A stretch of 64,000 bases of DNA from Psammoneis japonica (taxonomy: Eukaryota): assembly GCA_008632985.1 (NCBI GenBank), contig QPGO01000234.1, forward strand, positions 1 to 64,000, read 5' to 3'. A program made the translations under genes and the position numbers. The number at the start of each line of letters is the position of its first letter. The stretch's first letter is position 1. Positions 1,091-53,879 of this stretch are shown piece after piece. The notes beneath the pieces were generated by a model. The model saw nothing but the letters and a program-made list of their open reading frames with translations, had not been told where the DNA came from and did no database searches.

Positions 1091-1099
1091 TCAGAGCTT

Positions 1100-26587: not shown

Positions 26588-26815
26588 ATGTACCGGTACA
26601 AGTACTTCCTACCGATAGTGCCATTGGTACTTGTTAATGCCCTGATCTCATCTCTTTTGCATCTCATGTCGGCACATGTGGCGATCTCAGCCGACCACAA
26701 GGTGGAAAAAACGGTTCTCGTGATTGGATGTGGTTTTGCAGGAATCATCTCGACAGCTTGTCGTTTGGAAAAGAAGTTTGACGTGATTTTGCTGGAGGCA
26801 CGAGATCGTGTTTGA
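26588..26815 (+). pseudogene. Truncated FAD-dependent oxidoreductase (amine oxidase-like) N-terminus
   Basis: Signal-like N-terminus, then the Rossmann motif VLVIGCGFAG...VILLEARDRV followed immediately by a stop. Confidence 0.65.
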
Positions 26816-26935
26816 GGACGAGTTTGGTCGTTTGGTGGACTTGATAATGATGACACTCGTGTTGACCTCGGAGCAGCTTTTGTTCGTGAAGAGTGTGACA
26901 AAAAAAAAACATTCAAGAGCTCATGAAACATCTCA

Positions 26936-28032
26936 ATGTCCCGTTTCATCAATCAAAGAAACAAGAACACGCCACAGATTAAATGTGACCGAGACGACAA
27001 CCCCATGAATACAATGCACACCACCTTTGACAAGGATGGCAATAGAACAAGTAAATCATTGGAACATTCTCCGAGCTTCCTCTCTTGCGTTTCTCTTCTC
27101 CAGAGCTGTCGCAATCCTTGGGGACAAATGCGATTCGGAAAAATGTTGGAGGACTTGGATGCACTCGCGGGGAATGTTACCTTTTGTCATGTAGAGGGGA
27201 ATCCGCTTGTTGTGATGGCGGCTGTTGATCGGATTAGGCTGAGGCGTCAGCCAGTGATTGGACAAGACCAACACTTGTCTGGGCGAGTCATGTGGGTGGG
27301 CAACAACAGTGCTGGCATGGAGATTCGCATGCAAGCGAAAACGTTAAAGGAGAGGAATGGCTGGAAGCCTGCTTTACTTTTGTGACGTTGGACCCTGAAA
27401 CCAAGAAACCGGTCACAATGCCTCTCCTCATTGCAACGACCCAAAAAGAACGAGCGGAGTTTGAATTGGGCGCACTCAAGGCCAAATCGAAAAAGCCCAC
27501 ACGCAAGGACAAGCTCAAGGTGGGAGAGCCATTGGCCGAGGCTGCATTGCGAACGGACCGTGGAGGCATGGTGTTTTGCATTTTTGTAGAAGCACAAACC
27601 CTTGGAATCGAGTTGGCTTTTGCCAATGCCTGCGTCTTTGGAGAAGCCAAGCCATGCTTTCTGCAGGTAGATGACATCAGCTTTGATGCACCCGTGGATG
27701 CTGGTGATTTGCTGGTTTTCAGCAGTCGTGTGCTGTGCACGAAACTGGAGGGAGGACATTTGGTAAACTGTTGCGACAACTTGAACAAAGAAGATGAAGA
27801 TGATGCAAAGCCCCACATGTCAAAAAACATGCCTCTGGTTGCCATTGAAGTGGAGGCATGGGTGACGGAACCCGAGAAGGCGAATGCTCGCGCATGCAAT
27901 CATTTTTACTTCACTGTTGCGCCCCCCGAAGGCACGCCATGTCGAAAGGTTCTACCAGGAAACATTGACGAAGCCAGAAGGCAGGCAACCCGAATGGCAG
28001 CCAACAAAGAACACGCCAGCTTGAGATCGTGA
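26936..28032 (+). pseudogene. Acyl-CoA thioesterase (ACOT9-like double hot-dog) pseudogene
   Basis: Motifs CRNPWGQMRFGKMLEDLDALAG, AAVDRI, ELAFANACVF, VDDISFDAPVDAGDLL. Frameshifted, with expected Tyr positions reading Cys. Confidence 0.8.
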
Positions 28033-28646
28033 GCACATCACGATGCGTGAAGCTGCACCATTTGTGAGTTTCCCAGGTGTTGCCAGTGCCGGATCAGATG
28101 AGATGCTGTGTCTGATCTGATCCTCCGCCTCTTCCGATCCTCGTTGATGTTGAGGGAGATCAGAGAAGTTTCGGGAGATGTGATGCAGGACGACGGATGG
28201 CGGCAAGACACAATCTTTCTAACCGTTGCGTGGAATCCAGTGCAAAACCTGCAAACGTGGCTGCACTGCCAGGTCTCCCCCACAAGTCAATGTTCCCGCC
28301 AAACCCAAAACAACCGTTTCGTTTGGGTTTCTCGCATGTTTCTCACAACTCGCACAAACGTCTCTCATCGTGACACCCAAACAAGAGTGTCAACGCTTTG
28401 TAAACAAGCCCACGCAACACAAAAACCCATTGCGGCATTCGATTGCAGCTGACGACAATCGATGCAATGAATGCAACGCCGTTAAAATCGTCGCGTTCGG
28501 CGGAGGATGCCTCCGATTCCTTCAAGATCAACAGCGATTTGAAAACAACTGGTGACGGCAAATCACAAAGTGAGTCGTCGGGAAAGGCTGCTGCGAGTTC
28601 GTGGGAAGCAGGAATGAAGCGAAAGGTCGAAGCCATGACAAAGAAT

Positions 28647-31600
28647 TGACAGGATTTGAACAGGATTTGGGTGCGCGCAAAATGTCACACACAGTTTTGT
28701 GTGCTTCAGTTTGCGAGCGTTCGCGCGCGATGCAGTTTGCTTTCGAGCCACAAGGCTCACAAGAATGACAACAGTGGCCCGATTGTGCCGACTTGCACGT
28801 CTTTCGGCTCCTGCAACGGTCTCTGAGCGGAGACTCATCTGCCATTTAGACAGCAGCAAGGAGTTGTTGTTTGAATTCTTGCCACTTGCCTTCAATTTCT
28901 GTCAGATTGACAGTCTTGCTCATTGTCAACCCATTGAGCAACCGCCATCATCGTCGTTGATTTGCCGACAATGCCACCTCAATTCTGCACGGACCTCCGC
29001 ATGTGTTCTACGTACGTCGGCAAGTCTGCGCGCATTCAACACCAGGCACCGGCAGGAAGTTAACGTTGCCGTCAAATCTCCTTGCCGCTGGACATCTGGA
29101 TTGATTGTGCTGCCTTTTGTCGCTGAAGACATGCACTCAACGGCCATGTCCAAGTCCATCCTTGATCCTCATCCCTTGACACACCCACTCAATGGTTGAC
29201 GGTCAAGAACCCCGCACATTCAAGGATCTTCGTCGCTGAAGACATGCACATGTCTGTGTCTTCACGGCCAAGAACTTGTGCCCACTCTTTGGACCGCGGC
29301 TTTGCCGCCACTCTGCAAGCACACCGAGTCCATTGCACCTGATCTGCCCCGGACTGCTGGTGCTCCACAGTTCCGCTGGGTCCACGAGGACGACTGTGAG
29401 AGCAAGCAGCCGTGATTGCAGCCTGCGTTGGGGCGAGGGTGTTTTCCCGCTTTGTTCGTTCGTCCACAGTGCCCAACGCCTGCGTCAACTGGCCAGCCTG
29501 ATCGGGAAATCCAGCCGACATAAAATGAGAACGGTTCGGCGGTCTTGTCCACCTCCAGTCAGCTCACCTGCAGGGGTTTACAACCCGCTGCTCCACTCGC
29601 AAGCAACCCAAAGCGCCGCTGGCTGTGGGTTCAGACGTGCCGGCACAACTCTACGGACCGGACAGGAGGTTTGGCACTTGACAACAAACGGGACGGCACA
29701 ACCCAGCGACTTCTGATTTTCAAGACAGTCCAAGATTTCAAGTCAAGTCTGGCTCAAGTCAAGTCTTTTTCAAGCCAAGTTCCAAGTCAAAACTCCGAGT
29801 CAAGGTCGCACTCTAGATTGGTTCCTGTCTTTTGTTTCTGCTGCACCGTCCTCCGTCATGGTTCTCACGCGACAGCAACAAACCAAAAGCTTCAAATGCA
29901 TTCCGGGCACTGTGCTCAATCAAGATGATGACAGCCCTCTTCGTTCTGCCCTGTCCATCAATGGGATTGAATCGTGTGAGGAATTGTTCATGTTCTCGCC
30001 CACCCAAATTGACGCCCTCACTTGCAGAGACGGCGCCAATGCAGTGCCTTTGCCACGGACCCACAGAAACCTCCTGGCAGCTTTGATCAGCTTCTGCTTT
30101 GTCAAAGTTTGCAACGGTGATGATGTGACCAATGAACCCCAGTTGCTCACACCCGATGAATTTCGCAACCACCGCCTTGGTCCGGACTGCTTGACCTCTC
30201 TAGCCACTGGCGCAGCACCCTCCGCACCTGTGCCGAGTCCCTTGCCATCCAAACCAGGTAAACCCAGTGCCATTTTGACACCAGCCTTGCACTGTGCCGC
30301 CACTCAGGTGTCCCCCAGAAGTGGTGTCAGTCGCGCCCCGCATGTCTTGACCAACCCGCCTGCAAGCAACCTCGGCCCAGTGCAGGATTGCAGCCCTTGC
30401 ACAGGCCCGCACTTCGAGACCAGTTGGGACACTCCACTCATGGCTTCCAAAGCTGCAGTCTTTGCACCCCGCAAACCACGTGCTGCCAACCTCCACGTGT
30501 CGACCGCTGTCACCCTTCACAGTCTTTGTTTGGGAAGTGATGGAGATGACAACTTGCTTCTCGCATCTCCTGATGGGGAGCCTCCTTTTCCCATCATTGA
30601 ATCTGTTCACAACAGTTCAACCGGTTCATCAGATGGGGAGTTCAGGACATCCAAGCAGCTTCGTTGTCTTCGGATCCTCCAAGCATTGCACCATGAGACC
30701 AGGCCTCCTGACTGGATGCTCCAAGTCTCGCACCTCGAGACTGGGCCTCCTGATTGGATGCCTCAAGTCTCGCACCTCGAGACTGGGCCTCCTGATTGGA
30801 TGCCTCAAGTCTCGTGCCTTGAGACCAGGCCTCCTGACTGGATGCTCCAAGTCTCGTACCTCGAGACCAGGCCTCCTGATTGGATGCCTCAAGTCTCGTG
30901 CCTCGAGACCAGGCCTCCTGATTGGATGCCTCAAGTCTCGTGCCTCGAGACTGGGCCTCCTGGTTGGATCCCCCAAGTCTCGTACCTCGAGACTGGGCCT
31001 CCTGATTGGATGCCTCAAGTCTCGTACATCGAGACTGGGCCTCCTGATTGGATGCCCCAAGTCTCGTGCCTTGAGACCAGGCCTCCCAACTGGACTCTCC
31101 ACGTCTCGTGCCTCGAGACCGGGCCTCCCAATTGGATCCCCCAAGTCTCGCACCTCAAGACTTGGCCTCCTGATTGGATCCCCGAAGACTCGTGTCACAA
31201 GACTGGCAAGTCCTTTTGGATCCCAGAAGTCTTGCAGCACGGGACTGGTTGCCCCAACCAGACATCTGCAGCCTTGCACCACAAGATGTCTTGCTCCAAT
31301 CCGATCCCCGAAGGCTTGCACCTTGAGACTCGTTTCTCCAATTGGATCAGTCTCTCAGGAGATGCAGCTGAGCTTGCAATCGGATTGGTGGAACACAAGA
31401 CCACCGCTTGTGCCTTTGAACTCATGCTTGCTCTGTTCCCCAAGTCGTGCAAATGCCATGTCACCCTGCACGAGCACTGCTCTGTTTTTCTAGCAGCAGC
31501 CCAGTGTGGCAACCGTCCCAAGAACCAACAGACGGCCATCAGTCTTTGTGACCTTTGCTCAGGAAGTGAAGGCGATGTCAACTTGTTTGCATTGTCCTGC

Positions 31601-32170
31601 AATGTTGCCCCGCCGTTCAACATTGTCAACCAGACCAAGCTTTGCTCCTTCCATTGCAAGTGCGGATGTGGAATCCCACAAGATCCCAAGTGTGCCTTGA
31701 GCTTTGAAAAGCACAACGGCATCTGCAATTGGGGAGACGCAGCTCATCTCAAGATGACCCACTTGGAGAATGCAACGTTGCTCTCGGATCTTGATCCTTT
31801 CTTGTCTCCTCATGTTTTGGTGCTTTGACTCCAAAGTTCTTCAGTCAATCCGAAGTCGAATCTGTTTCTGTGACTCCTCAAGCAAACTGGGGAGTGACAG
31901 GATTTGAACAGGATTCAGGTGCATGCGAAATGTCGCGTGCCGTTTAGTTCACCGTGCACAGTTTTGTGTGCTTTAGTTCCGCGCGTTCGCACGCGATGTA
32001 GTTTGCTTTCGAGCCACAAGGCTCACAAGAACAATGACAGCAGCCCGATTGTGCCGACTTGCACGTCTTTCGGCTCCTGTGACGGTCTCTGAGCGGAGAC
32101 TCATCTGCCATTTAGACAGCAGCAAGGAGTTGTTGTTTGAATTCTTGCCATTTGCCTTCAATTTCTGTCA
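28647..32170 (+). mobile_element. Non-autonomous LTR retrotransposon with both LTRs and a 5-bp TSD
   Basis: LTRs 28647-28904 and 31895-32170 (TGACAG...CTGTCA). TSD AGAAT at 28642-28646 and 32171-32175. PPT-like AACTGGGGAG before the 3' LTR. Internal gag-like ORF start at 29858; no RT or integrase recognised. Confidence 0.92.
30690..31200 (+). repeat. 42-bp tandem array (about 12 units, LETGPPDWMPQVS[Y/H/C]) inside the LTR element
   Basis: Unit GAGACTGGGCCTCCTGATTGGATGCCTCAAGTCTCG[TA/CA/TG]CCTC repeated, decaying toward about 31350. Confidence 0.95.
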
Positions 32171-33248
32171 AGAATGTCCACGCAAAGAATGTGAGTTCGT
32201 TTCTTTTTGTGATTGTCGTCAATGCATGGACAGTTTTCGAAAATCTGTGCTGACTAATTTTTTCAATTGTTTTGTCATTTTGATGCGTTTGTTCAACCGT
32301 GCTTGTCTGCAATGCAGCTGAGTCCGCCTGCAGAGAAGTCCGATGACGAATCGAACAAGGTGAGGATCGCAGATCGTTGGGGGGTAAAATCTCATCCCCA
32401 TCTAGAGCTTTCATTTCTGTCTTCCGACTTTCATGTTTAAATTTGTTTTGCAGGATCAATCGAAAGCTGTCAAGATTGAAGAATCCAATGAAGAGCGAGC
32501 GACGAGCGACGAGAGTCTCGATGCGCCGTCAACGTTGATGAACTCTTCGACAGGCACCTTCACGGCAGGCCCTTCAGTGTCGACATCCGCTCTCTCGGGC
32601 GATGTTGCACATTGTTTGTGCATCCCAGCAGATTCACACGGAATGGCAGACCCTTCAAAAGCCTTTTTCTCCATGACTTTGCCTGAGAAAGTCGAGTTTT
32701 CGGAAGAATGCAAGAAGATGGACGCGATGAGCTCGACTGAACTTGTTGGCCATCTGAATGGTCGTGCCAGCGAGGGTCATGTGGCAAATTCTGTGACACT
32801 GCAGCTGCGTCCGAGTGCCCCTGCGAGTCACCTGGCAGTCTCTGCGTCTTGGGCTTGGCTCCCCCCAGGCGCGCTGGGAATTCAAGAATGCACCATGGCA
32901 TCGTTTGCATGCAATGGTGATGCTGAGGGCCCCACGCAGCCTCACCCTAAACGCTGGCGACTGCAATTGGTGACAAAGCCAAACTTGGAACTGCTGAGAG
33001 ACCACCCAGATGTCAAACAGCGCGAGCTTGAAGAAGCCTTGAACCAGTGTAAAGAGAAGGTCGCAGAATGCACTGGGTTGGTCCAGGCGATGCCAGAAGA
33101 ACTCACCACGACGGAGATTTCCGCAGATGCGCTTGAAATGAAGCACAGTGCTGAATGGGAGCTGTCCACAGCAGGCCAAGACTGGAATGATTTTCGAACC
33201 GAAACTCTTTCCCATTGCCGAAAAAAGATTCTCGAAGAGGGCCGTTGC

Positions 33249-33638
33249 GACGCGTTCCAGGTCTAGGTGGGACCTCGTGCCACTGAGCTGTGACATCGAC
33301 AGTTTTTTGAATCACGTCACATGTCACGCACACAGATTTCTACGTGATTTTTTCAATGTTTTGTGTCATTTTACGGCACACTTGTTGAGCGATCCGTCCA
33401 ACAACTTTTTACATTTTTTGTTGCAGCGCGATTCTACAATGTCTTGAGAATCGCGCAGGGCGGGTGCATTTGCAGAAACGTCGAGTGGCAAGAGGCACAA
33501 TTGTGCCACAAACTTGGCAGTTTATTTGATGTTGAAGACAAACATGTCCATCAATTAAATTCTCGCACTGCGGAGCTCGCACGTAGAATTCTGCTGGCCC
33601 AATGTCACACGGAGTCCCACCCAGGACTGGAACCCGTC
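33249..33638. mobile_element. MITE family A, copy 1 (390 bp)
   Basis: TIRs GACGCGTTCCAGGTCTAGGTGGGAC / GTCCCACCCAGGACTGGAACCCGTC with 4-bp TSD TTGC. The empty site is visible in gene copies 2 and 3. Confidence 0.92.
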
Positions 33639-34217
33639 TTGCTGCCACAGGTGTGAGACACCCTGCGGGGAGATTGCTTTTCTCGAGTGCAGCTGTTTTG
33701 ATGCAGATGATCAAGATGCAAATGGCATCTGCAGACTTCGCTTGTGCACAAAGTGCGTGTCAGATTTGAAAGAACTCGAATCCTCGAACCTTGAAGTCTG
33801 CGAAGTTTGCAAAACACTCTCTTGCCAGATCAACCCTGAAGCTGGAAGGTGCAGGGACACCAACTGCGCAACTCACCTGTGTGGGGTGGCAGGAAACAGA
33901 ACCTGCTTGGAGCACATTAAAGGAAAAGGACCCTGAAAGAAAAAGCGCGTGTGCAAGCTGTGTGTCAATGTGTGCTCGTTGGCGAAACCGACTGTTCGGA
34001 GTGTCGTGCCGCTTGCCTGGTGCCAAAAATGCAACAATGGCATCGCAACGGTGGTGCACACAGCAACAGCCTTTGCGGTGGTCACCTCAACAGGGACATC
34101 CTGTCATCTGTCCTTGACTGTTGTGGATCTCTGGAGTTGACGCGGTTTGCTCTGGCAAGCTGCGACAACTTCCGCTTTTCCAAAGCTTGCGTCAAACGAC
34201 TTTGTCAACAGTTGAAA

Positions 34218-34613
34218 GACGCGTTCCAGACGCAGGTGGGAATCCGTGTGACATTGGGCCCGTGGACTTCTACGTGCGAGCTCCGTAGTAAAATTATTCG
34301 GTAATTAAAATGTCAATGATCGCCAACAGAAAATGAGGCAATTTTGCGAACGCACAAACTGGGCCTTGATTGAAGTACATCATTTTTTACTTAGCCGGTT
34401 ACATTCTTCAGACATTGAAGAATGTAACTGGCGCATTATTGTTTCTATAATTTCGTTATATAAAACGTCTGGGGCTTCGCAAAACAGCGAGTCTGGACAA
34501 TTTTTTTTAAATGTCACACGTAGAAATGTACGTGCGAAACATACGACGGATGACAAAAATTATTTGTGTCACACGTCAGTACTACGAGCTCCCACCTAGG
34601 GCTGGAACGCGTC
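34218..34613. mobile_element. MITE family B, copy 1 (396 bp, TpA-retaining, young)
   Basis: TIRs GACGCGTTCCAG..AGGTGGGA / TCCCACCT..CTGGAACGCGTC with 4-bp TSD GAAA. 25 TA dinucleotides counted by eye. Confidence 0.93.
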
Positions 34614-35639
34614 GAAAAGCATTTCGTGCCTCCACAATCATTTCACTTGTGGAGCATCCTTTAAAAAACTTCATTGTCTGGAGGAAGAAGCCCACAATTG
34701 GTTTGGCTTTTTCACTGTCGACGACTTTGAAGATGCCCAGCAATGCCTTCGATGGCATGACAGACTTTCCTTCACAAAGGTCGACGCACCAGAATTCCAA
34801 TCATCCAAAGGATGTGGTGTGATGCATTGTGAAGATCCATTGGGGCTGGGTGCATCGTGCTGGCGGGGCTCATTTGTGGCAACAAGATGCTTTGTTCGAA
34901 TGTGGCATCGCACTGCGCAGTTGGATGGGTGAAGTCACCCACATTTGTTGTGTCTCCCAAGATCGGGTTGGTGTCAACAGCATGTGATCCTTTGGCGCCA
35001 TGCAGAGAACCGGTTCTCACTGGGTTGCACACCATGAGTTGCCTTTGAATCTCTCAATGCCGAGGGAAGACGGCCAAGACTCAGAAGACGAGGACTGCCT
35101 CAGAGTTGTGCGAGGAGACTGAGGCACTTTTTGGACTCAAGTGTGAAGTCAGCATGAGGACTCTTTGTTGCTTTGTGTTCAGTGCCAATGATCTCCATCG
35201 CTTTTGTTGCCATGATGCATTCGAACAAGTCACAGCCACCGAGGGACAAGTCCCTGTCAATGACGAGTCAACGCCCGACGGCCCTCTGCGTTGGGCAATT
35301 ACGACAATCAAGGGTCCCAAAGATGGACCCATGTTCGGCATCCCGGACAAATTGTCTTTGTGAGATTGCACAGAACATGAACATGCGCAACTCTGTGCCC
35401 GCACCACAAGCAGGAACCGCCATCACGTCTGGTGGGTTTAGAGGCACTTCCTGTGGATCAAGATGGAAATTCTTTCTGCTGTCATTAATGTTGTGAAATA
35501 ACTGCTTGCACGTGTCAAAAACAATTTGTGCTTGCATCAGAGAGCAGAGATCATTGCGGCCACAGCTGCCACACACCATGCCGCAGCTGTCAAACAGCTG
35601 GCTTTAGAGCATGGCGTGCCAATTTGTCTGCTCTCTGCT

Positions 35640-35755
35640 CCAGCTAGAGAGTCTCTTGCAGTAGAGCTCTCTAGTAGTAGAGCTCTCTAGCTGGAGAGAG
35701 TAGCTGCTCTACTAGCTAGAGTAGCTCTAGAGAGTTGAGAGTAGAAGCAGCTACA
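35640..35755. repeat. CTAG/TAGAG/CTCTA-rich low-complexity patch
   Basis: CTAGAGAG, TAGAGCTCTCTAG twice, CTACTAGCTAGAGTAGCTCTAGAG. Similar patches occur at 5240-5270, 59865-59895 and 63131-63145. Confidence 0.75.
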
Positions 35756-41976: not shown

Positions 41977-42399
41977 GCATCAAAGATTGCGCGCACATGA
42001 AAAGTTGGCAGACGGCAAACTGCATTTGTGAGAAATGTCGACATTGCCATCATCGTCGTGCTTCGATCGCGGTGCATGATGTTCTTGTTTTCATGCGTGA
42101 TCGGGGGTGAATGCAAACAATTTTTGCGCTCAAAAACAAACACTGCAAATGTCTTCGTTCAAATGCCATGGTGACTCCAGGACAAACGCGGGGATGACCC
42201 CCCTTAAAGAACAATGAATGCACGTTGCATGCAGCAAAAATTGTCACTGGTGGAAGTCATCTGACCGTTTTAGTCATCTTCGGATTTCTGCGCAATTTTC
42301 ACTGTGGGAAAGTGCTGAGTCATGAGTGGGCGGGACTGACCACTTCCTGTGTCCGCGCGCTCAACACAGCCCTCACCTTCGGCATCTGGGGAAATTCTC

Positions 42400-42601
42400 A
42401 AGTCTCCAGCCAGCTGCTGGCTGAAGAAATTTGTGTAGAAATTGCACTGAAAGAGTCTGTCAATCTGTGCGTCAGGGGGTTTTGGTGAACGCTGGACAGA
42501 CTCGTCTTCTTTTGCGCATGTAAAAATTGTGCTGCACTTGCAAAACCGCCCAAACGCACTGACGAGCAGACTTTTTTCAGCCAGCAGCTGGCTGGAGACT
42601 T
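42400..42601. mobile_element. Small inverted-repeat element (about 200 bp)
   Basis: AAGTCTCCAGCCAGCTGCTGGCTGAA ... TTCAGCCAGCAGCTGGCTGGAGACTT. The interior resembles about 48750-48875 in inverted orientation. Confidence 0.65.
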
Positions 42602-42645
42602 CCCCCCATGTCTCCCCATTGCATCTGACACATTTCAAATGCACC

Positions 42646-44428
42646 ATGGCGTCGGCCGCAAGCATCAACGACCATGACAGTCCCACACAGCCTGCTCCGA
42701 AACGTCAGAGACTGACAGTGGAGTCAGATTTAAACTTGAAAGCACTCAGAGAGAACCTGGAGGTGAAACAGCGCGAGCTCGAAGATGCCTTGAACACGTG
42801 CAAAGAAAAGCTCGCTGCGCACCTGCATGCAAGCGACACCAGAAGAACTCATGTCGGCTGACACTCCCCCCGTCAAGTGTCTCAGTCAAAAGAGTGATGC
42901 TGAACAAAGTCTTTCTCGTGTCGGAAGAAAGTGGAATGACATTCAGACCCAAACTCTTTCCTTTTGCCGAAAAAAGCTTCTCAACGAGGGCCGTTGTTGC
43001 CACCGGTGTGAGGAGACACCCAACGGGGAGACAGCTTTGCTTGAGTGCGGCTGTTTTAATGTAGATGATCGTGACACAAGTGGCATCTGCGGACTTCGCT
43101 TGTGCACAAAATGCGCATCAGATTTGAAAGAATTCAAATCATCGGATCTGAAAGTCTGCGAAGTTTGCAAAACACTTTCTTGCCAGATCAACCCTGAAAC
43201 TGGAAGGCACAGTTCCGCCAAATGCGCAACTTGCTTGTGCAAGGTGGCAGAAAACAGCACCTGCTCGGAGCACATTGAAGGAAAAAGATCTTTGGAGAAA
43301 AAGCACGTGTGCAAGCCATGTGTCCGTGCATGCTCCGCCCCATTGCGCATTTTGACTGGGCATGTGTCGCCCGAGCCAGCACACAAAATGCAGCTGAGGA
43401 GTCAGAATGATGGCGGTTGCAGCAACACCATTTTCGGTGGTCACCTCAACAATGACATCCTGTTGATCATTCTTGACTGTTGTGGATCGAGAGAACTGAT
43501 GCGGTTTGCGCTGGCCAGTTTCGACAACTTCCATCTTGCCGAAAGTTACGCGAGTCGACTTTGTCAATGCTTGAATGGCAGCCCTGCCCCAAAAGAGTGT
43601 TGGACATCATCTTGTAGATGGATCAATCATCTTGAGTTTCAAGTGGCAGAAAGGTTTTGCTTTTTATCAATCGACGACTTTGAAGGCGCCCAGCGACACC
43701 TTCGGCGCTGCGACAACCTTTGCTTTACAAAGGTTCACCAGCCACATGACTGCGCATCAGTGGAACATAATCTGATTTTCATTGAGGAGGATTTTCTTGA
43801 GCCGGCAACGCTTGGGGCCATTTGCGGCAACAAGAGCCTTTGTTCCAATGTGGGATCGCATTTTGTCATTGGTCGTGTGCATTCATCGCAGTCTGTCGCT
43901 CCACTTTCGATCGGATTGGTTTCAACAGAATGTGATCCTTTGGCGCCATGTAACGAACCGGGTTCTTGCTGGGTTGCACACCATGAGTTGGATTTTAGCC
44001 GCTTTGTTCCGCCCATGGACGACGATGTCGACCAGGTTGATGCAATTTTCGGTGTCAAGTTTGAACCTGATGCGCGGATTCTCTCGCATTTTGATTTTTT
44101 TGCTGAAGATCTTGATGAATTTTTCCGCATTGATGGTGAGGACGAAAGGCCACTCAGTGGAGCCAGTGCGATGGAATGACAAGTCTGCATCAAAGAAGCT
44201 TCAATGCCTGCAGGTCCACTGCACTGAGCAATGACAATGGGCACAAACGAGGAACCTGCCGCTGAAAGCGAGTTTGAAATGCCGTCAGAGGTGTCGTTGC
44301 GCGATTGCACCGCAGCTGAATTTGACCAACTTTATGACCGCTCTTGCAGGCAGCACAAGAATCACGGCTTCGCATTGTGTCACAGGGTTGTTTGGCATTG
44401 CTTCCATCTGTTGACTTCATCTCATTAG
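42646..44428 (+). pseudogene. F-box-like gene family copy 2
   Basis: Frameshift near 42825 and internal TGA stops. F-box-like LNNDILLIILDCCGSRELMRFALAS; C-terminal SPRY-like pattern. Confidence 0.8.
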
Positions 44429-44699
44429 CCAAATGAGGGAAAGATGACGAGGCAGGTGCATCCAGCAGCCTGCCACCCCTCTGTTTGGTCAAAGATGGAG
44501 CGAAAAGCCTGATCGTTGCATTTTGAGCTCGCGAAGCGGCAAAGGAAGCTGCGAGTCATTTGTGTTTTCTTTCACAACAAGCCTGACCTTGTCATGGCCG
44601 CAAATCGGCTTGGAAGATCTCATCTTTCCTCGTCCCCGTGATTGGAGAAAATGGGTGCAGATTTGGCCCAAATGTGAATTGCTTCCATGAAACACATTG

Positions 44700-46350
44700 T
44701 GTGGCACCCATTGTGCAAGCTGTCAATTTTGCTCCACCCCTCGAAGAACTCAGACTTCTCCTTTAGATTTCTTCGTGCCTTTGGATTTCTTGGTGCACGA
44801 CTTCTTTCCTTTCTTTCCGAAACACAACGAATCGTCGCTGTTCTCCACACCAGATGACATGGCTGAAAACAAATCATGGTGAGTGCGGTGGCAGCATGCA
44901 TCTCGTTCATTGTGGACGTCACCGGATCCATGTCCTCCCAGCCGTCCATGCATTCGCGACCCCAGCTCGGTTCACTGTCGGTCGCGGCCGTGTAAACCGC
45001 CGTGTGGCCATGTGCATGTGGGAGCATTGGCATTTGGAAGAAACTCGCCAGAAAAACACTGATCGTGAATCACAAAGAGCCGTTGCACTGGACAGTCGGC
45101 GTTGTCAGCTTCAAGCTCAACTGGTGTGTAGATCTCACCGCCATCAGCAATCCCGTCACTGTCAAAGTCCCACAGGTTGAGACCACAGGTGTTCGTTCCA
45201 TGCATGGTGTGACGCGCAGATGAGTGGCACGTCCGTTTCAACATCAAGATGCTGACACAGCTCCCCCATCTTGGCACGAATCGTGTCTTGTTTGGTTGTG
45301 CCACTCGCAACGTCGTTTGTTGCAAAGTCATCATTGTCACCATCACCATTGTTGAGATAAAGTGGGTTGGACCCAACAGTGTGCAGGTGAAGATCAGGCT
45401 TGCCAGAAAGCCACAGCCCCAGATCTTGCTGCAGAGGCTCTTGAGGTTGGCGGCATGCCTTCTGAAAGTTGGCCCTGTCATTGATGTTGCCAGACATCAA
45501 AGCCAAATGAAGGCACTCCTTGTCTTTGGAAGTCCTCCTCCTTCTTTCCAGACAAACATCTGGAGGCTTGTGGGGAATGTCCGGACAGCTCAGCGGTGTG
45601 ACCTCTTTGCACGTGAAGCAGAGTTCACTTCCATGCCCTTGGCCTGCCCAGACGGTTGTTGAAGGAAAGTCTTTGCCAAACTCCTCAACATGGTTCACAC
45701 ACATCCACTCTGCCTCACACCCAAAGTTTGAAAATGGTGCAGGGTCAAGCATGACAACCCAGGTGAGCAGGCATGGCTGAAGCAAGTCACAAATCCCTTG
45801 GTCGTGGTCATGAGCCACAGCAGGAGTCTGCCCAGATGCTCTGTCTCCTGGCATGGCAAAGTCCGTCATTCAGATTGCCTCACTCTCAATGGCTTGGTCG
45901 CGCACCTTTCATTCAATGTGATCAACTGCATCCTCTGGAGCAAGATTTCAAACTCTTCAATGTCAGCCAATGCCGGGGGAAAGGCCGTGCTGGCAAGAAG
46001 AGCAAGTCTGCAAACCATTGGCTTGGAAAGAATCATGGGTCACAACAAAACTGGACCCAACACGTCACTTGAATTCTGGCTCAACATTGCAAAGCTGCTC
46101 AGATTGCTTCTCTTTGATCAGGAGCTGCAACAAGCAAAGATTGCAAGCATGAAAAAATCAACACCAAAGCAAATCTCATCATGGCACAGTGCACTGACCT
46201 TTCCATTGTTTGTGAGACAATCTTTGCAAGAATCAAGACAAAATGTGTGATGCTCATCATGCAATTCCTCCTCTGATGCACGTTTTTGAGTCTTGACAGA
46301 TGCAGATGGAGCCTTGAAATCTTCGGTGTTTGCTGCCATCCATGGCTCAA
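44700..46350 (-). pseudogene. Clan CD (C13/caspase-like) peptidase, copy a
   Basis: Frameshifted homolog of 51801-53381, with LFVIHDQCFSG and HTAVYTAA. Confidence 0.75.
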
Positions 46351-46799
46351 TTCATTTCATTCCCCAATTTCTGAGCGCACTTTCAATCATTGTGCCACAT
46401 GATGTGTTGGTGGCTTTGATTTCCATCTGCTTCTCTTTGTCATGTGCTCAACGTGATTTTCAGTCTCAATGCCGCACAACAGATGCTTTGTTTCCACAAC
46501 ACTTGTTGCAATCCATGGCTCAAATCATTTGAGTTCCTGGCACACTCATTGGAGACATCTGACCATGACTTTCATTTCTCCACAAGAACTGCCATCTCTC
46601 CCTCACTGTGAGACATGTTCAAAATGTCAATGGTTGCAAGATGCCATGCTTCGCCCCAAACAGATGAGTGGTTGATGGTTGCATCATTCATTGGTGATGA
46701 CAATTCCAACCCAAACTGGGAAAATGAGTGAGTGTGGGATTCCAGCCAGGAAAAAGTGAGCACGGGAGTCTGTCTGTGTCCCCCCCATCACCCCCCCCA

Positions 46800-48700
46800 A
46801 CTGTGCCAGCCATCTTGTCATCTGTGTGTGTGCTTCCTTGTGTGCAATCAATGCAACAGATGACTTGTGCACCTCTGCCACCAAAGATGATTCAAAACCA
46901 GTCCACCGTGACTGTCACCATCTGGGGCAGCAGTCTTTGCAGTGGGAGATTGAAGCTGGCAGTGGTTCGGTTTGCTCAGATGGTGGAGGCAAAGACACCA
47001 ATGAGTTGCTCATGTTGTTGATCACATGGCTCAATGCATTTGAGGAGTGGGTTGTTTCCAAGGTCAACCTTTCAAAGAAACCAGACAAACTGTCCCCAGC
47101 AGTGAGTTGCTTCTGGGAAGTGCCAGCCAGGGACTCCTTTGTGATGGGCTCTTTGAGCAGCCATGTCACAACTTGCAAGACAAACTCTGGCAGCAGCAGT
47201 GGGCACAATCAAAGCCCAGTCAGAACCTGCTGTGAAGGAATGAAATGATGAAACAATGTGATGAGTGGATGGAGGGGACAGTGTGTCCCTGGACAGCGGG
47301 GCTGCTGTGATGTTCTCCTTCTCCAAAAACCACTGGCTGTGCAGACAATGTCCCTCCTCCAAGGTGTCCATGGCCAGGGCTCTTGCAACATCAAGCTGTG
47401 TGACCATGTTGTTGTCCAAGTGGGGCTTGTGCATCTGCCCCATGACTGTTGTGCTGTTGCCCCACAGAAGGCAGCATGACTCTGCAGGGGGTTGACCACG
47501 ACACAGAGTGTCCATGACACAGGTGGTGCAGCATGCCACCAGGAACTCCAGGGTGTTGAGCACAGCACAACATCAGAGATGCGCAGGCAGCTCCCCAACT
47601 GCTGTGCCACACCTCAGGCAGTGCAGAAGCCCCCAAACCCATGTTTGCAGGCATCGGATCTGCAAATTTGATTTGGCAAGCAAAATGCCACAATGTTCTT
47701 CAGGCTGATCCCCCAACCACAAAATTGCCATCCCTGATGGCAGCCAGAGGCTCAGAAGCCTTGGGGATCATGCCCCAAATCCAAGATGGAGTTGTCTTGT
47801 CAAACTTGTTCCCAGATGATGTGTGGCCAGACACTCCACCATGTTCCTCTGCCAAGTTCTTGTGGGAGGTGAGAGACTGGCCAATTTGCAAAAAAGGAGC
47901 GGCCTCTGGTGCTGATGCTGTGCCAGATGGGGACATCATGGCGGTGCCTGCAGAGGCAGCATTGTTGCCAGAAATGGGGATGCCAGGTGGTGCGAGCCTT
48001 CCCATGGTTGCAGAGGAGCCGATGCCCAACTCTCAGCCCTGGAATGGGCGAGAGTGTCAAGTGCAGAACCTCTCATCTTGCTGGAAGAGCTGCCAACCAC
48101 GGGAAATGGACAACGGGACAAAAAACTGCACCAGTGGCAAGTTCTTGGTTGCTGCATCAAAGTTTTGAAAAAATCTCAGATGGCCAGCTTTGACGTGACA
48201 GCCCCAGCCAAAAATTGTGGGATGAGGATGATGATGCGGAGCAAGGTGCAGGCTTCAGCAGCATCCCAAGGTGCTGTCAGCAGCGCCTTTGCATCAGCTG
48301 GCGATGATCCTCCTGCTGATTGGAGTGCAGCAATCCAATCCAGAGCTGTCGTGGGTGAGTCATCAACATGCCAGAGACACAAGCTGGGTGGTGCAAGAGC
48401 CGGCATGGTGTGAGCACCATGGCCGCTCTCAGCGCCCAAATGGAGTTTTTTTGTTCGGGGTTGAGGGGGGCTTGAGGTTGACATGCAGCTGGTGGGTGAG
48501 CTTCACATTCCCCAGGGTGCCAGGGATGAGTCCCACCAACAAGTCTCTCAGCACCAACATCTCCGCATGGCACGCCTCGGCAGAGAGAGGTCGTTGTCGA
48601 AGAACGTGGCAAAGCCGCAACTCGCGTGTGCTTCGCACGAAAGGCACACACAAAATTCCAACCCTGCCCTCCATGACATTTGGGGGGCATGTCTGGACAG
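46800..48700 (-). mobile_element. DIRS/Ngaro-like tyrosine-recombinase retrotransposon relic (RNase H region)
   Basis: GISLKNIVAFCLPNQICRSDACKHGFGGF, LNTLEFL, LWGNSTTVMG, CLHSQWF...NITAAPLSRD follow the DIRS-type RNase H pattern (SDA..G.G, N.LE, DNT, N..AD.LSR). Limits approximate. Confidence 0.7.
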
Positions 48701-49015
48701 CTGCTGTTCGAACAAATTCTCTCTGTCTGTGCGTTTGGGGCACTTGTCAGTGCTGCAGGCAGAATTTCAACGCATGCACAGAAAAAGAGGCAGAGTCTGT
48801 CCTGCGTTCACCAAATTTTCCGAATGCCTCAACAGCAATGATGATTGACAGACTGTTCCAATGCAAATTCCATCCACGCAAGATTGTTCGAACAGCCGCC
48901 TCCGTCGGTCCAGACACGTCCCCCAATAAATGCGGTAACCCCCAAGTTGTCTCTGCCAAAAAGCGGCGCTCTCCATCTGCACCTCGCGCTGCGCGCTGCA
49001 CCTGCACTGTTCTAA

Positions 49016-49745
49016 GACTCTGTCCAAACACTGTCATACCGTAGGTATGATCATACCCACGTCACGCAGGCTTTTATGATGACGTCATAGGTCATACCCG
49101 TAATGTTCTGTCCAAACACATTCGTACGTACGATAGTACCTCATAGACATTAATCGAATGATTCAAACTTACAGTACGCGAAGCAACACCAGATACAACA
49201 TGAATGAACCAGCGACAACAACACGACGAGAACGACATGACCATGACGACGAGAACGCAACCATAAGGCGACAATAAGCCATACAAAGGACACCCATTGA
49301 TGAAAAAATCATGCTTATGTATAACTTATGGCTAAATCAGTTGTCTGTAAGAGTGTATGACATGAATTTATTTTAAGAAACTGTTTGGCAAAATGGTTGT
49401 GTCAGAAGAGTCCAGAATGGCACACAAAGCCCCCCAAAGACAACAAAAAGCTCATGCATGGTCTTAAGAGGTTGCCTCATATAACACACAGCCACATGCG
49501 CTTTGGCCGTATCAAAAAACGATGCATATCGGTTGTTTTCGTGTTTCGTCGGTGGGGTATGATGTTTGGGTATGATGTTTCCGAGGAAGTCTGTTCTCGC
49601 GAGAACAAACATCCTCATGAAAGTTGGTATGGCCTAAAATTACGTCATGCATAGGGCTAATAACCACTAAATTTTTCGAAGAGGCTCATTTTAGGCGCTA
49701 TGACGTCAGGTATGATCATACGCATGACAGTGTTTGGACAGGGTC
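49016..49745. mobile_element. PIF/Harbinger (Tourist-like) MITE, 730 bp, TpA-retaining
   Basis: TIR GACTCTGTCCAAACACTGTCAT / ATGACAGTGTTTGGACAGGGTC with TAA TSD on both sides. Subterminal GGTATGATCATAC palindromes. Confidence 0.9.
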
Positions 49746-49794
49746 TAATAAAAATACATCGCACAACGCTGCAATCTGAAATTTGCACTACACC

Positions 49795-51651
49795 ATGGCG
49801 TCGTCCGCAAGATACAACGACCATGACGGTCCCACACAGCCTGATCCGAAATGTCAGCGACTGACAGTGGAGTCAGATTTAAACTTGAAATCGTTGAGAG
49901 AGAACCTGGAGGTGAAACAGCGCGAGCTCGAAGATGCCTTGAACACGTGCAAAGAAAAGCTCGCTGCGCACATGCAAGCGACACCAGAAGAACTCACATC
50001 AGCTGACACTCCCCCCGTCAAGCATCGCAGTCGAAAGAATGATGATGAACAAAGTCTTTCCCGCATCGGAAGAATGTGGAATGACACTCGGACCCAAACT
50101 CTTTCCCATTGCCGAAAAAAGCTTCTCAACGAGGGCCGTTGTTGTCATCGGTGTGAGGAGACATCCAACGGGGAGATGGCTTCATTCGAGTGCGGCTGTT
50201 TTAATGTGGATGATCGAGATGCAAATGGCATCTGCGGAGTTCGCTTGTGCACAAAATGCGCAACAGATTTGAAAGAATTCAAATGGTCGGATCTGAAAGT
50301 CTGCGAAGTTTGCAAAACACTTTCTTGCCAGATCAACCCTGCAACTGCTGAGTTCAATTTCACCAAATGCGTAACTTGCTTTTGCGATGTGGCAGAAAAT
50401 CGAACTCACTTGGAGCAACATGAAGGAAAAGGATTTTTGGAGAAAAAGCATGTGTGCGAGCCATGTGTCTGGGCATGCTCCGCTGCTGCATGCCGCTGCA
50501 CCAGTGCAACTTGCCTTGTGTCGCCCGGGGTAGTGCCAAAAAAGCAGCTGAGGAGTCAGAATGATGGCGGTTGCAGCAACACTGTTTTCGGTGGTCACCT
50601 CAACAATGATGTCCTGTCGACTGTTCTTGACTGTTGTGGATCGAGAGAACTGATGCGGTTTGCGCTGGCCAGTTTCGACAACTTCCATCTTGCCGAAAGT
50701 TACGCGAGTCGACTTTGTCAACTCTTGAATGGCAGCCCTGCCCCCAAAAAGTGTTGGTCATTACATTGTAGATTGATCTATCGTCTCGAGGTTGGAGCAG
50801 CAACAAGACTTGGCTTTTTGTCAGCCGACGACTTTGAAGGCGCACAGCGACACCTTCGGCGCCGCGACAACCTTTGCTTTACAAAGGTTCACGGTCCATG
50901 TGACTTCGCATTGGTGAAACATTGCCGGCACAGGATTGAAATTGAGGACAATTTATTTGAGCCGGCAAAGCTTGGGGCCATTTGCGGCAACAAGATCCTT
51001 TGCTCCAATGTGGGATCGCATTGTGTCATTGGTCGTGTGCTCTCATCGCGGTCTGTCGCTCCACTTTCGATCGGATTGGTTTCAACAGAATGTGACCCTT
51101 TGGCGCCATGTAACGAACTGGGTTCTTGCTGGGTTGCACACCATGAGTTGGATTTAAGTCACTTTATTTGGTCCATGGGGCCAGACGATGTCGACCAGGT
51201 TGGTGCAATTTTCGGTGTCAAATTTGACCCTGGCTCGCGGACTCTGTCGTATTTTGACTTTTTTGCTGAAGATCTTGATGAATTTTTCCGCATGAATGGT
51301 GAGGACAGTGAGGATGAAAGGCTGCCCAGTGGAGCCAGTGCAATGGAACGACAAGTCTGCATCGAAGAAGCTTCAATGTCTGCCGGTCCACTGCACTGGG
51401 CAATGACAATGGGCACAAACGAAGAACCTGCCGATGGAAGCGAGTTCATTGAAATGCCGTCAAGGGTGTCGTTGCGCGATTGCACCGCAGCTGAATTTGA
51501 CCAGCTTTATGACCGTTCTTGCAGGCAGCACATGAATCATGGTCGCGTTTCATCTCACCAGGCAAATGAAGAAAAGATGACGATGCAGGTGCATCTGGCA
51601 ACCTGCAACCCTTCCGCGTGTCATTTGTGTTTTCTTCCATCACGAGCCTGA
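49795..51651 (+). pseudogene. F-box-like gene family copy 3 (open frame but hypermutated)
   Basis: Continuous ORF with coiled coil, CxxC clusters, F-box-like LNNDVLSTVLDCCGSRELMRFALAS and SPRY-like FGVKFDPGSRTLSYF...GPLHWAM. Very few Tyr. Confidence 0.7.
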
Positions 51652-51800
51652 CCTTGTCATGGCTGCAAATCAGCTTGGAAGGTTGTGCTCTCATCTGTCC
51701 TCGCCCCCATGATTGGAGAAAATGGATGCTGTGCAGACATGGCCCGAATGTGAATTACTCCATGAAACATGTTGTGTGCTCATTGTGCAAGCTGTCAATT

Positions 51801-53381
51801 TTACCACGCCCCTCGAAGAACTCGGACTTTTCCTTTGTATTTCTTCGAGCCTTTGGATTTCTTCGAGCCTTTGGATTTCTTGGCACACGACTTTTTCCCT
51901 TTCTTTCCTTTGCCGGTGGAACACGTCTCGCAGAAACACAACGAAACGTCGCCGTTCTCCACACCAGATGCCATGGCTGAGGACCCAATCATAGTGAGTG
52001 CGGCAGCAGCATGCATCTCATTCATTGTGGACGTCGCCGGATCCATGTCCTCCCACCCGTCCATGCACTCGCGACCCCAGCTCGGTTCACTGTCTGTCGC
52101 GGCCGTGCAAACCGCCGTGTGGCCATGTGTGGGAGCATTGGCGATTGGAAGAAATTTGCCAGAAAAACACTGATCGTGAATCACAAAGAGCCGACGCACC
52201 CGGCAGTCGGCAGTGTCAGCTTCAAGCTCGTCTGGTGTGTAGATCTCATCGTCATCAGCAATCCTGTCGCTGTTAAAGTCCCACAGGTTGAGGCCACTGT
52301 CGTTCGTTCCGTGGTTTGATGCACAGACAAGTGGCACATCCGTTTCAGCATCAAGAGACTGGCACAGCTCCCTGATCTTGGCACGAATCACATCTTTGTT
52401 TGTGCCACCCGCAACGTCGTTTCCAGCAAAGTCATCATCGTCACCATCGCCATTGTCGAGATCAAGTGGATCGGACCCATCGCTGCAGCAGGTGAAGATC
52501 TGGCTTGCTAGAAACCCACAGCCCCGGATCTTGCTGCAGACGCTCTTGAGGTTGGTGGCATGCCGCTGACAGTTTGCCCCGTCATTGACGCCGCCAGACA
52601 TCAACACTGCATGCAGGCACTCCTTGTCTTCGGCAGTCCTCCTCCTTCTTTCCAGATGACTGTCTGGAGGCTTGCAGGGAACGTCCGGACAGCCCAGGGG
52701 TGTGACCTCCTTGCACGAAAAGCCGCGCTCGCTTCCACGCCCTTGGTCTGCCCAGACGGCAGGAGGAAAGTCTTTGCCAAACTCCTCGACATGCTCATTC
52801 AGCATGTGGTTCACGTGTGTCCACTCTGCTTCATGCCCAAAGTTTGCAAGTGGTGTAGGATCAAGCATGGCAACCCATGTGTGCGGGCAGGGTAGAGACG
52901 AATCACAAATCCCTGGGTCATGGTCACGAGCCACGGCAGGAGTCTGCCCCGATGCTCCGTCTCCTGGTGCGGCAAAGTCCGTCATCCAGATTGTCTCGCT
53001 CTCAATGGTTCGGTCAAGCACCTTTCATTCAATGCAATCCGCCACATCCTCTGGGGTGATTTCAAATTCAATGTCAGCCAATGCCGGGAAAAATGCCACG
53101 CCGGCAAGAAGAACGAGGCTGCAAAAACCGTTGGCTTGGAAAGAATCATGGGTTGTCAAAGCTGCGTGGGCGCAATGTGTCAATGGTTTTCTGTCTTCGA
53201 CTTTCGACGTTACAAGTTGTTCAGGTTGCTGTTTTTCGAGCATCATTTGTGAGACAATCTTTTCAAGAATCCGGACAAATCCGCGACACTCGTGTGGCGA
53301 TGCACGTTTTTGAGTCTTGACAGCTCCGGATGAATTCCGCGATGCTTGTTGCCGTCCATGACTCAATTCATTTCTCACCAC
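51801..53381 (-). pseudogene. Clan CD (C13 legumain/caspase-like) cysteine peptidase, copy b
   Basis: LHAVLMSGG..NCQRH, putative catalytic SNHG and DQCFSG, and an upstream hydrophobic segment. In-frame TGA at 53027-53025. Confidence 0.78.
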
Positions 53382-53879
53382 GACAGACTTTCAATCGTTG
53401 AGCCATTTCCACAGATGGCTTTGATTCCCATTTACTTCTCTCGGTCACGTGCTGAATCTGATTTTCAGTCTCAACTGCGCTGTAAAAAAGATGATGATGC
53501 CCATTGCATTGCCATCCATGACTCCTCAAATCATTTTAGTGCCTGGAACACCAACTCGAGTTGTCTGATCATGATTTCTCCACACAATTGCGCCGTCTCT
53601 CCCTTGCTGCGAGACAAAAACGTTTGTGATTACAAGATGACACGCTTGGATAGTTTTGGTGACATGGGCCCCGCCCTCCGCATGATTTTCAGATTATTCG
53701 ATTATCGAACCGGGAAAGAGTGAGCGCGGGATGAACCGGGAAAAAGTGAGCGCGGGAAGTCCGTCCGTGTCTCCCCCGTCACCCGACCGCGCGGCGAACC
53801 CGAGACCCGAGCGCAGCGCGCGGTCGTCTTGGTCGCATACTGTATAAAGAGCCTGTGTAAAAAAAAAACGCCTGAGACA

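Follow-up and report, generated by a model that had tools for sequence, protein, structure and literature searches.

Probable footprint of DNA-level hypermutation restricted to TpA in mobile and duplicated DNA of the diatom Psammoneis japonica

Why should whole kilobases of a diatom nuclear genome be almost free of the dinucleotide TpA (TA), when the genes beside them carry it at ordinary frequency? The question is raised by a 64-kb stretch of Psammoneis japonica (assembly GCA_008632985.1, contig QPGO01000234.1, positions 1 to 64,000 of the forward strand), referred to here as the window. Its TA-poor blocks are made of a long terminal repeat (LTR) element, miniature inverted-repeat transposable elements (MITEs) and a duplicated unit of an orphan gene and a peptidase-like gene, and the host genes in the flanks have a TA observed/expected ratio (o/e) of 0.56. 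An earlier sequence-only reading had proposed a TA-specific A:T→G:C process on DNA, opposite to fungal repeat-induced point mutation (RIP) and sparing neighbouring genes, and this proposal was upheld by dinucleotide ratios, a MITE pair, the two LTRs of one element, a tandem array and tyrosine sites. With a probability of about 0.8, this nuclear genome bears the long-term footprint of a local hypermutation of DNA, in which A:T is changed to G:C only at TA, in place, in mobile elements, relics and duplicated (possibly foreign-derived) genes, up to exhaustion of TA, with host genes spared; for its chemistry we infer a deaminase step. Specificity, polarity, action in place, equal use of the strands, flank preference and a rate that exceeds background by about two orders of magnitude are supported directly.

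Frequencies were surveyed in 1-kb windows, and block limits were set from TA counts per 100 bp. Over most of the window TA o/e was 0.5-0.7, and in three regions it fell to 0.00-0.17, with TG + CA o/e climbing to 1.4-2.07. The depletion of the three domains that had been described earlier is therefore real, but the third is broken by a TA-normal island and starts nearer 40.7 than 40.3 kb, and four refined blocks are used here (D1, D2, D3a and D3b; Table 1). Together these blocks (25,949 bp) contained 158 TA against 890 expected at the level of the flanks (1,454 TA in 37,100 bp, o/e 0.563). Pooled depleted/flank ratios were 0.18 for TA, 0.64 for CG, 1.36 for TG and 1.28 for CA, and lay between 0.90 and 1.08 for the remaining 12 dinucleotides (0.94-1.07 for AA, AT and TT; 1.07 for AA itself). 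A general drift from AT to GC is excluded because only TA, CG, TG and CA deviate from the flanks, and the spectrum is TA-specific, as had been claimed. Several block edges were abrupt, with the change completed in 100 bp (near 200, 5200, 35600, 48900 and 49850), and edges frequently lay just outside host genes; precise targeting or purifying selection on the genes could each be sufficient for this.

The same ratios bear on error-prone repair synthesis of the DNA polymerase eta type in heterochromatin, which the sequence-only reading had listed as a possible source of the A→G changes. The A→G errors of this polymerase arise at WA motifs (W, A or T), to which TA belongs. The other WA motif, AA, is undepleted (ratio 1.07), saturation is found at TA alone and TTAA is the most resistant context, all of which disfavours this option and leaves it very improbable.

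The polarity of the change was read from copies that differ in their state of conversion. Relative to the unconverted MITE R1a, 18 of the 25 TA sites of its relative R1b were converted (nine to TG and nine to CA), seven were kept and none had changed in the reverse direction. The pair differed by 18 TA-type and eight CpG-type transitions, against five isolated transversions and a few adjacent double changes that included transversions. In the reads, 13 of 32 differences listed (157 further differences exist) were sites at which other copies had TA and the window TG or CA, among them nine of the 14 differences listed for 40333-42473; at position 41771 the A allele had a depth of 13,142 out of 14,553. 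Pairing of TA with TG or CA between copies, as described in the earlier reading, was thus found in R1a and R1b, in the segmental duplicates A and B and in the reads, and the family copies are not themselves TA-free, since R1a has an o/e of 0.74 and the other read copies carry TA. The opposite polarity, from TG or CA to TA, is unlikely because the unmutated state would then be nearly TA-free, unlike any ordinary part of the window. When the three copies of the orphan gene family (C, A and B) were compared by parsimony, no polarity emerged, because C is the outgroup.

Codons changed in agreement with this direction. The peptidase-like frame of copy B was aligned with its homologue P0126, and at the 11 aligned tyrosines of the latter the window had six Cys (TGT/TGC), one His (CAT), one Tyr, two Trp and one Phe; Cys or His at Tyr sites of this gene, which had been noted earlier, was therefore present at seven of 11. 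At one homologue-Tyr site copy A has TAC and copy B TGC. Relic frames as a whole (1,900 residues) contained 0.58% Tyr, 6.53% Cys and 4.11% His, against 2.92%, 1.64% and 2.31%, respectively, in the frames of the flanks (5,111 residues).

Such a pattern might also be produced without mutation, by base-calling errors at a modified base, by assembly error, or by foreign DNA that is intrinsically TA-free. The public run X1 contained 90% of sampled words from 44.5-54.5 kb, and one contig of 4,019 nt built from it spanned the TA-free region 45053-49071 with one difference, at a depth of 58 against 55 in flanking single-copy genes. An assembly slip is excluded because the X1 contigs reproduce the TA-free stretch at single-copy depth, and the TG/CA alleles are present in read contigs, although in a sample that is possibly the assembly's own. 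Each of the three outcomes by which the sequence-only reading could have been refuted was thus looked for and not seen: TA-free family copies, a spectrum lacking TA specificity, and reads without the TG/CA alleles. An artefactual or non-mutational origin draws some support from the read data, since the sole run with the TA-free stretch may share the sample of the assembly and its library type is unrecorded. It is contradicted by the k-mer contigs at depth 55-60, which reproduce 4 kb of TA-free sequence with a single difference; by conversion that tracks insertion boundaries base by base; by copies within one molecule that differ in conversion state; by the agreeing Tyr→Cys/His changes at codon level; and by metagenome relatives of the peptidase-like gene with TA o/e of 0.72-0.89. 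We regard such an origin as scarcely credible.

The process acted on DNA after insertion or duplication. The two LTRs of the element in D2 were identical at insertion because the element is flanked by a target-site duplication. Over 257 aligned bases they now show 21 differences, 20 of which are transitions: five adjacent TG/CA doubles (10 positions), two TA/CA and five CpG-type differences, with four differences in the 129 columns outside pyrimidine-purine (YR) steps. Where TG faces CA, the ancestor must have had TA (or CG), with a separate change in each LTR; at the CpG o/e of 0.9-1.0 found in the LTRs, clearly less than one such double is expected from CpG decay. On the assumption that concordant and discordant conversions are equally frequent, the ancestral LTR had an estimated 13 or so TA (0.05 per bp, a normal density), about 85% of which were converted in each LTR. 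Background divergence was about 1.5% per LTR, and the rate excess at TA is, by this indirect estimate, roughly 100-fold. Units of the 42-bp tandem array inside the element likewise diverged in place: at one site flanked by G and C, seven units have CA, six TG and three TA, and two further polymorphic sites have CA in five and TG in seven units, and TG in ten and CA in five.

These differences decide against A-to-I editing of element RNA by an ADAR-like enzyme, with the edits fixed by reverse transcription and reinsertion. According to a preprint (Mettrop et al., bioRxiv 10.64898/2026.01.13.699255), a 5' U is preferred by ADARs, and double-stranded RNA of repeats is hyper-edited by these enzymes. 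The two LTRs of a single insertion nevertheless differ at converted sites (five TG/CA doubles and two TA/CA), which is only possible after integration; MITEs, a context flanked by a terminal inverted repeat (TIR) element, tandem units and a segmental gene duplicate are converted too; and AA is undepleted, although ADARs accept a 5' A as well. A route through RNA has a likelihood close to negligible.

Self-comparison of the window was performed twice, with plain letters and with a purine/pyrimidine alphabet in which transitions are collapsed. It brought out the segmental duplicates, the broken third copy C, the LTR pair, the tandem array and the MITE-like elements, which occur twice. The segmental duplicates A and B had 85% identity, or 90-94% with transitions ignored, and they differ mainly by transitions, because identity rises so strongly on collapsing these. 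TG stood opposite CA at 43 positions in the pairwise alignment and at 32 in a MAFFT alignment, compared with control doubles AC/GT and AT/GC at 10 and eight (pairwise) and seven and three (MAFFT). A further 275 sites were TG/TG and 259 were CA/CA in the pairwise alignment, and a large part of the conversion thus predates the A/B duplication, because most TG and CA are common to both copies.

Loss of TA does not reduce to decay of 5-methylcytosine. Both kinds of change yield TpG and CpA, but 5-methylcytosine decay consumes CpG, whereas blocks D2 and D3b have lost TA at a CpG o/e that stays at 0.76-0.84. CpG is abundant in the second domain (o/e 0.76), as had been noted earlier, and decay of 5-methylcytosine is insufficient because TA vanishes where CpG persists. 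Strong CpG loss was confined to D1 and 45-48.9 kb (CpG o/e 0.04-0.5; TG + CA o/e 1.9-2.07). In these two parts an independent CpG→TpG/CpA decay, of the kind that 5-methylcytosine would give, appears to be overlaid on the loss of TA, and this looks like extra decay of methylated CpG where the blocks are oldest or most silenced. Within D3b, X1 contigs and window differed as TA/CA, TA/TG and TG/TA at 50531, 50780 and 53133 and at four CA/CG sites; these differences could be allelic or strain polymorphisms arising from the same two processes, and would then hint at recent activity.

Both strands were used equally. Counts of TG and CA were balanced in all 500-bp bins of the blocks, with a skew no greater than in the flanks, and no strand-coordinated tracts were seen in any bin; along R1b the two outcomes were interleaved, as judged by eye. 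The process would accordingly change TA to TG when acting on one strand and to CA when acting on the other, until TA is exhausted. The bases next to TA influenced conversion. Residual TA relative to the flanks was 0.01 for ATAT, 0.03 for ATAC, 0.06 for ATAG, 0.08 for GTAC, 0.16 for ATAA, 0.18 for both CTAC and CTAG, 0.23 for CTAA, 0.30 for GTAA and 0.58 for TTAA, which makes ATAT the most sensitive context and TTAA the most resistant. An additive 5'-flank effect in the order A > G > C > T, taken from the four palindromic words, predicted the six mixed words closely (hand calculation). Among 62 polarised events C followed the edited A in 28 and the unedited partner in seven, some events of copy C being counted twice (C-A and C-B), and R1b retained both of its TTAA and both of its TTAC sites.

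These preferences bear on the chemistry. Adenine in DNA may be deaminated enzymatically to hypoxanthine by a TadA/ADAT-like or other deaminase-fold enzyme. The context of the tRNA substrate of TadA is U-A-C. A 5' T with a favoured 3' C would be compatible with TadA/ADAT-like deamination, and the change from A to G, the 5' T and the C after the edited A are shared with TadA, ADAT2-ADAT3 and engineered adenine base editors. The natural enzymes differ in acting on tRNA; no deaminase domain was found by Pfam in the open reading frames (ORFs) of the window, which holds no such gene, and the most sensitive context here is ATAT, with T after A. Activity of amphioxus ADAT2 on DNA is cited in the same preprint (bioRxiv 10.64898/2026.01.13.699255).

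A dioxygenase of the TET/JBP type might act on the other base of the pair, oxidising thymine at TA in silenced elements to 5-hydroxymethyluracil (5hmU) and then to 5-formyluracil, with mispairing to G giving T→C. 5-Formyluracil does mispair with G, and because TA is self-complementary, T→C at its first position is indistinguishable from A→G at its second in all sequence tests applied here. 5hmU itself pairs with A, we know of no thymine-modifying gene or modified base in diatoms, and the bias towards C behind the edited adenine (28 against seven) resembles the UAC context of TadA substrates; each of these counts against thymine oxidation, the last by favouring a deaminase. There is an example in another alga of the SAR group (stramenopiles, alveolates and Rhizaria): a dinoflagellate TET/JBP homologue makes 5hmU, which is enriched on repeats, and inhibition of this homologue de-represses transposons (PMC11572971). 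That system is likewise an enzymatic change of T:A in DNA concentrated on repeats, but 5hmU is there an epigenetic mark, for which the available text shows no mutagenicity and mentions no dinucleotide erasure (PMC11572971). Oxidation of thymine is therefore judged unlikely, although it is the main rival to a DNA adenine deaminase, which we take as the leading candidate chemistry.

The target of the process is less simply stated than its context. TA o/e forms a mosaic within the blocks, from 0.03-0.10 in the pieces of copy C, through 0.30 and 0.74 in the two MITEs that split it, to 0.81 in a TIR element that is unconverted though surrounded by fully converted DNA. This age mosaic is compatible with episodic action, and the TIR element was presumably inserted after conversion of its surroundings. 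Repetition alone is insufficient as a target, because unconverted R1a and the TIR element lie inside the blocks. Either the process is episodic, with later insertions, or it is targeted by silencing or foreignness; we favour targeting by a silenced or foreign state over targeting by repetitiveness as such.

The description 'repeat-targeted' in the sequence-only reading is consequently not established. Read depth at the adjacent MITEs (41186-41940) was 27,000-66,000, against 55-60 for single-copy DNA, which suggests a family of about 500-1,100 copies, and R1a from this family and the roughly 10-copy TIR element are unmutated inside the blocks. Duplication itself might nonetheless be the trigger, through an RIP-like sensing of homology with the opposite chemistry. 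In favour of this, an LTR element, MITEs and a gene family of three copies make up the converted blocks; the limit of D3b lies no more than about 100 bp from where duplicate B ends; and single-copy genes in the flanks are untouched. The unconverted state of R1a, a copy of the most repeated family, and of the TIR element argues otherwise, as does the most converted stretch of all (46794-48899), which has single-copy depth and matches nothing else in the window, whether or not transitions are counted; sharp edges could come from purifying selection on genes alone, and the main target in the chlorarachniophyte Bigelowiella natans is single-copy according to the preprint (bioRxiv 10.64898/2026.01.13.699255). 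A duplication trigger is on balance rather doubtful.

The process differs from fungal RIP in more than its trigger. RIP (in Neurospora and others) is similarly local and saturating, consists of transitions in a dinucleotide context on mobile and duplicated DNA, and spares neighbouring genes. It changes C to T mainly at CpA, creating TpA and stop codons, whereas the diatom process destroys TpA and makes no stops. The premeiotic trigger of RIP, a duplication that exceeds a threshold of length and identity, appears partly contradicted here: converted duplicates exist, but so do unconverted repeat copies inside the blocks, and the MITEs are only about 400 bp long.

The closest counterpart is found in mutation-accumulation lines of B. 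natans, and the same kind of process would be at work in both algae. Of the 302 nuclear mutations in these lines, 231 lay within two viral regions integrated in the genome. All but one of the 231 were A→G or T→C, and each of these 230 hit a TpA; in the two regions the rate reached about 6e-7 per site and generation, compared with 3.5e-10 elsewhere (Mettrop et al., bioRxiv 10.64898/2026.01.13.699255). The genome of that alga contains 124 TpA-poor, CpA + TpG-rich clusters, enriched for reverse transcriptase and DDE domains and for unannotated genes, and an ADAT2-like DNA adenine deaminase was proposed by its authors (Mettrop et al.). As far as the accessible text goes, the two cases share A:T→G:C change only, at TpA only, giving TpG or CpA by strand; confinement to foreign or mobile blocks in an otherwise ordinary genome (here one 64-kb window); and a TpA-poor, CpA + TpG-rich footprint with many unannotatable genes. 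They differ in host (a rhizarian there, a stramenopile here); in extent, an insert of a nucleocytoplasmic large DNA virus having a Rho of 0.45 there and saturation being reached here (0 TA in 2.1 kb); in targets, which are viral inserts there and an LTR element, MITEs and a duplicated gene unit here; and in the rate, measured directly there (about 1000-fold, active only in some lineages) and estimated indirectly from LTRs here (about 100-fold). The available part of that text contains nothing on flank preference, on an LTR-based proof of change in place or on superimposed CpG decay, all of which are reported here; it also mentions no diatoms, stramenopiles or flanking context (Mettrop et al.). 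The kind of process is hence already known, and its novelty is below what the earlier reading assumed; new here are saturation, the proof in place, flank preference, strand symmetry, the age mosaic and the second major algal lineage. No report of TpA erasure in diatoms was found in the literature searched, which left out most subscription journals.

Several points weigh against the interpretation as a whole. The tyrosine polarity depends on one homologue, P0126, at 41% identity and from a bacterial-looking contig. Run X1, the sole read set, possibly comes from the same sample as the assembly and does not represent an independent strain; its library type is unrecorded. The baseline for flank preference was taken from coding-rich flanks, and event numbers are small. 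For duplicates A and B, action on duplicates is inseparable from duplication of a unit that was already converted. The deaminase step and the targeting rule are reached by inference from the pattern. In mutation accumulation of Phaeodactylum, another diatom, CG, CC and TG were named as mutagenic contexts, and TpA hypermutation goes unmentioned in the part of that paper available (PMC6604790).

Conversion of TA also shapes what can be read in the blocks. It never makes stop codons, since the products are TGA or CAA from TAA and TGG or CAG from TAG; the many long open frames in the relics, among them the 623-aa and 407-aa frames of copy B, follow from the inability of TA→TG/CA change to create a stop. 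Genes would instead be inactivated by missense changes (Tyr→Cys/His and others) and by loss of TA-containing signals. Block ORFs were scanned with Pfam (216 ORFs at E ≤ 0.01 and, for D1 and 46.7-48.9 kb, 67 ORFs at E ≤ 1; open frames only), and no reverse transcriptase, integrase or transposase was found in these frames; their only match was a sub-threshold Peptidase_C13 at 51801-53024(-). Some earlier assignments could not be confirmed. The EQCGS motif ascribed to the reverse transcriptase of a long interspersed nuclear element is present at 2558(+), but neither D1 nor 46.7-48.9 kb has a Pfam reverse transcriptase; the supposed thioesterase, the 623-aa ORF, has no family; and the initiator-methionine primer-binding site is weak, with one 1-mismatch match at 440-451 against 1.39 expected by chance and no partner LTR found. 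D1 as an LTR element was rejected (best LTR-like alignment 41, shuffled mean 39.5).

The orphan frame P0001 has a single weak homologue (P0125, 29% identity) among 1.84 billion representatives, and no relative of P0001 or P0125 was found in viral contigs, in which the peptidase-like gene was not searched. That gene (P0002) also has a single detectable homologue, P0126, with 41% identity, which passes the Pfam threshold for Peptidase_C13 and corresponds to the C-terminal portion of a larger protein (about 1,100 aa) that has GEVED and DUF7901 domains (loci L001, L002). Relatives of P0126 were found at nine loci in metagenome contigs, with TA o/e of 0.72-0.89 and bacterial-looking neighbours; they were of use as an outgroup only, and to judge by these sequences the converted diatom gene unit may be foreign-derived by horizontal transfer. 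The MITE-like family is about 400 bp long with common inverted ends of about 100 bp; its terminal sequence gave no matches in metagenome contigs. No transposase domain was found in the TIR element at 49003-49758, which lies directly upstream of the frame start of copy B. The last 60 bp or so of duplicate B (alignment end 53784) already belong to the frame of a mitochondrial carrier (53724-54746), whose first bases were therefore carried by the duplication into copy A (46714-46793). Interpretation of 46.8-48.9 kb as a dead copy of the carrier gene was rejected, as the A/B alignment stops at 46793/53784.

Table 1. Coordinates of TA-poor blocks and of the elements and gene copies in the window.
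Feature	Position	Strand	TA o/e	Details
Block D1	201-5199		0.045	TA 14 vs 176 expected; CpG o/e 0.27; unrecognisable relic, no Pfam family in any ORF
Block D2	26700-35599		0.154	TA 81 vs 297 expected; CpG o/e 0.76; holds LTR element, gene copy C and two MITEs
Target-site duplication of LTR element	28642-28646 and 32171-32175			5 bp, AGAAT
Non-autonomous LTR element	28647-32170	+		LTRs 28647-28904 and 31895-32170; start TGACAGG, end CTGTCA
Tandem array	30670-31341	+		16 units of 42 bp inside LTR element
Copy C of orphan gene family	32886-35054	+	0.03-0.10	three pieces, split by two MITE insertions
MITE R2a	33246-33653		0.30	partly converted
MITE R1a	34203-34616		0.74	25 TA; unconverted; reference state for R1b
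Block D3a	40700-48899		0.063	TA 32 vs 286 expected; CpG o/e 0.1-0.3 from 45 kb onward
MITE R2b	41186-41536		0.17	adjacent to R1b
MITE R1b	41537-41940		0.23	adjacent to R2b
Segmental duplicate A	42640-46793	+	0.06	
Fully converted stretch	46794-48899			0 TA in 2,106 bp; CpG o/e 0.27; single-copy read depth
Island between D3a and D3b	48900-49850		0.79	TA-normal
TIR element	49003-49758		0.81	756 bp; inverted repeats ~35-50 bp; ~10 copies by depth; unconverted
Orphan gene frame P0001	49780-51651	+		open 623-aa frame; Tyr-poor, Cys-rich
Segmental duplicate B	49789-53784	+	0.14	converted part 49851-53700, ends at mitochondrial-carrier gene start
Block D3b	49851-53700			TA 31 vs 131 expected
Peptidase_C13-like frame P0002	51801-53024	-		407 aa; 19.6 bits vs Pfam cut-off 22.8

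The flanks contain genes for major facilitator superfamily (MFS) transporters, a plastid fibrillin, a Rubisco-LSMT-like SET protein, a UAA transporter, a proteasome subunit, a light-harvesting protein, PhyH, a P450 and the mitochondrial carrier, and the genes of the window are mostly without introns. The fibrillin gene had 589 relatives; in the best 120 of the 589 all organism-named matches were diatoms (Cylindrotheca, Nitzschia, Bacillariaceae, Pseudo-nitzschia and others), with 58-79% identity. Its presequence has a signal peptide followed by Phe, a motif of the heterokont type. By these features the window is diatom DNA and does not belong to Bigelowiella. Two further observations were made outside the blocks. 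At 23501-25000 TA o/e was 0.28-0.40 without a gain of TG/CA (1.04-1.10), AA/TT o/e was 1.4-1.56, GC was 0.52, and there are long overlapping frames on the two strands; this separate compositional oddity is no part of the hypermutation. The stretch 60213-60637, within the ORF 60047-60862 in a TA-normal region, contains tandem repeats that have diverged and recur about every 81 bp.

Hypermutation of TpA alone has so far been reported from one preprint and one rhizarian alga, and the diatom footprint adds a second, ecologically dominant lineage; with two lineages, a widespread defence becomes a more natural reading than an isolated curiosity. It is conceivable, at somewhat less than even odds, that a dedicated A:T→G:C enzyme for TpA is an ancient genome defence common to distant SAR algae (diatoms, chlorarachniophytes and perhaps more), aimed at silenced mobile or foreign DNA and acting on both strands with a preference for RTAY (R, purine; Y, pyrimidine) up to complete erasure of TA. 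If so, this ancient enzyme would be a natural counterpart of adenine base editors and the mirror image of fungal RIP. Handles on the enzyme are offered by the preference for ATAT over TTAA, by the equal use of strands and by partly converted blocks, where new mutations should still arise, and a natural editor of adenine (or thymine) in DNA would matter to genome-defence biology and to base-editing technology. For diatom genomes themselves the consequence is that annotation is misled: transposons and foreign genes escape family models, ORFs are inflated where TAA and TAG are gone, and Cys/His-rich 'orphan genes' appear.

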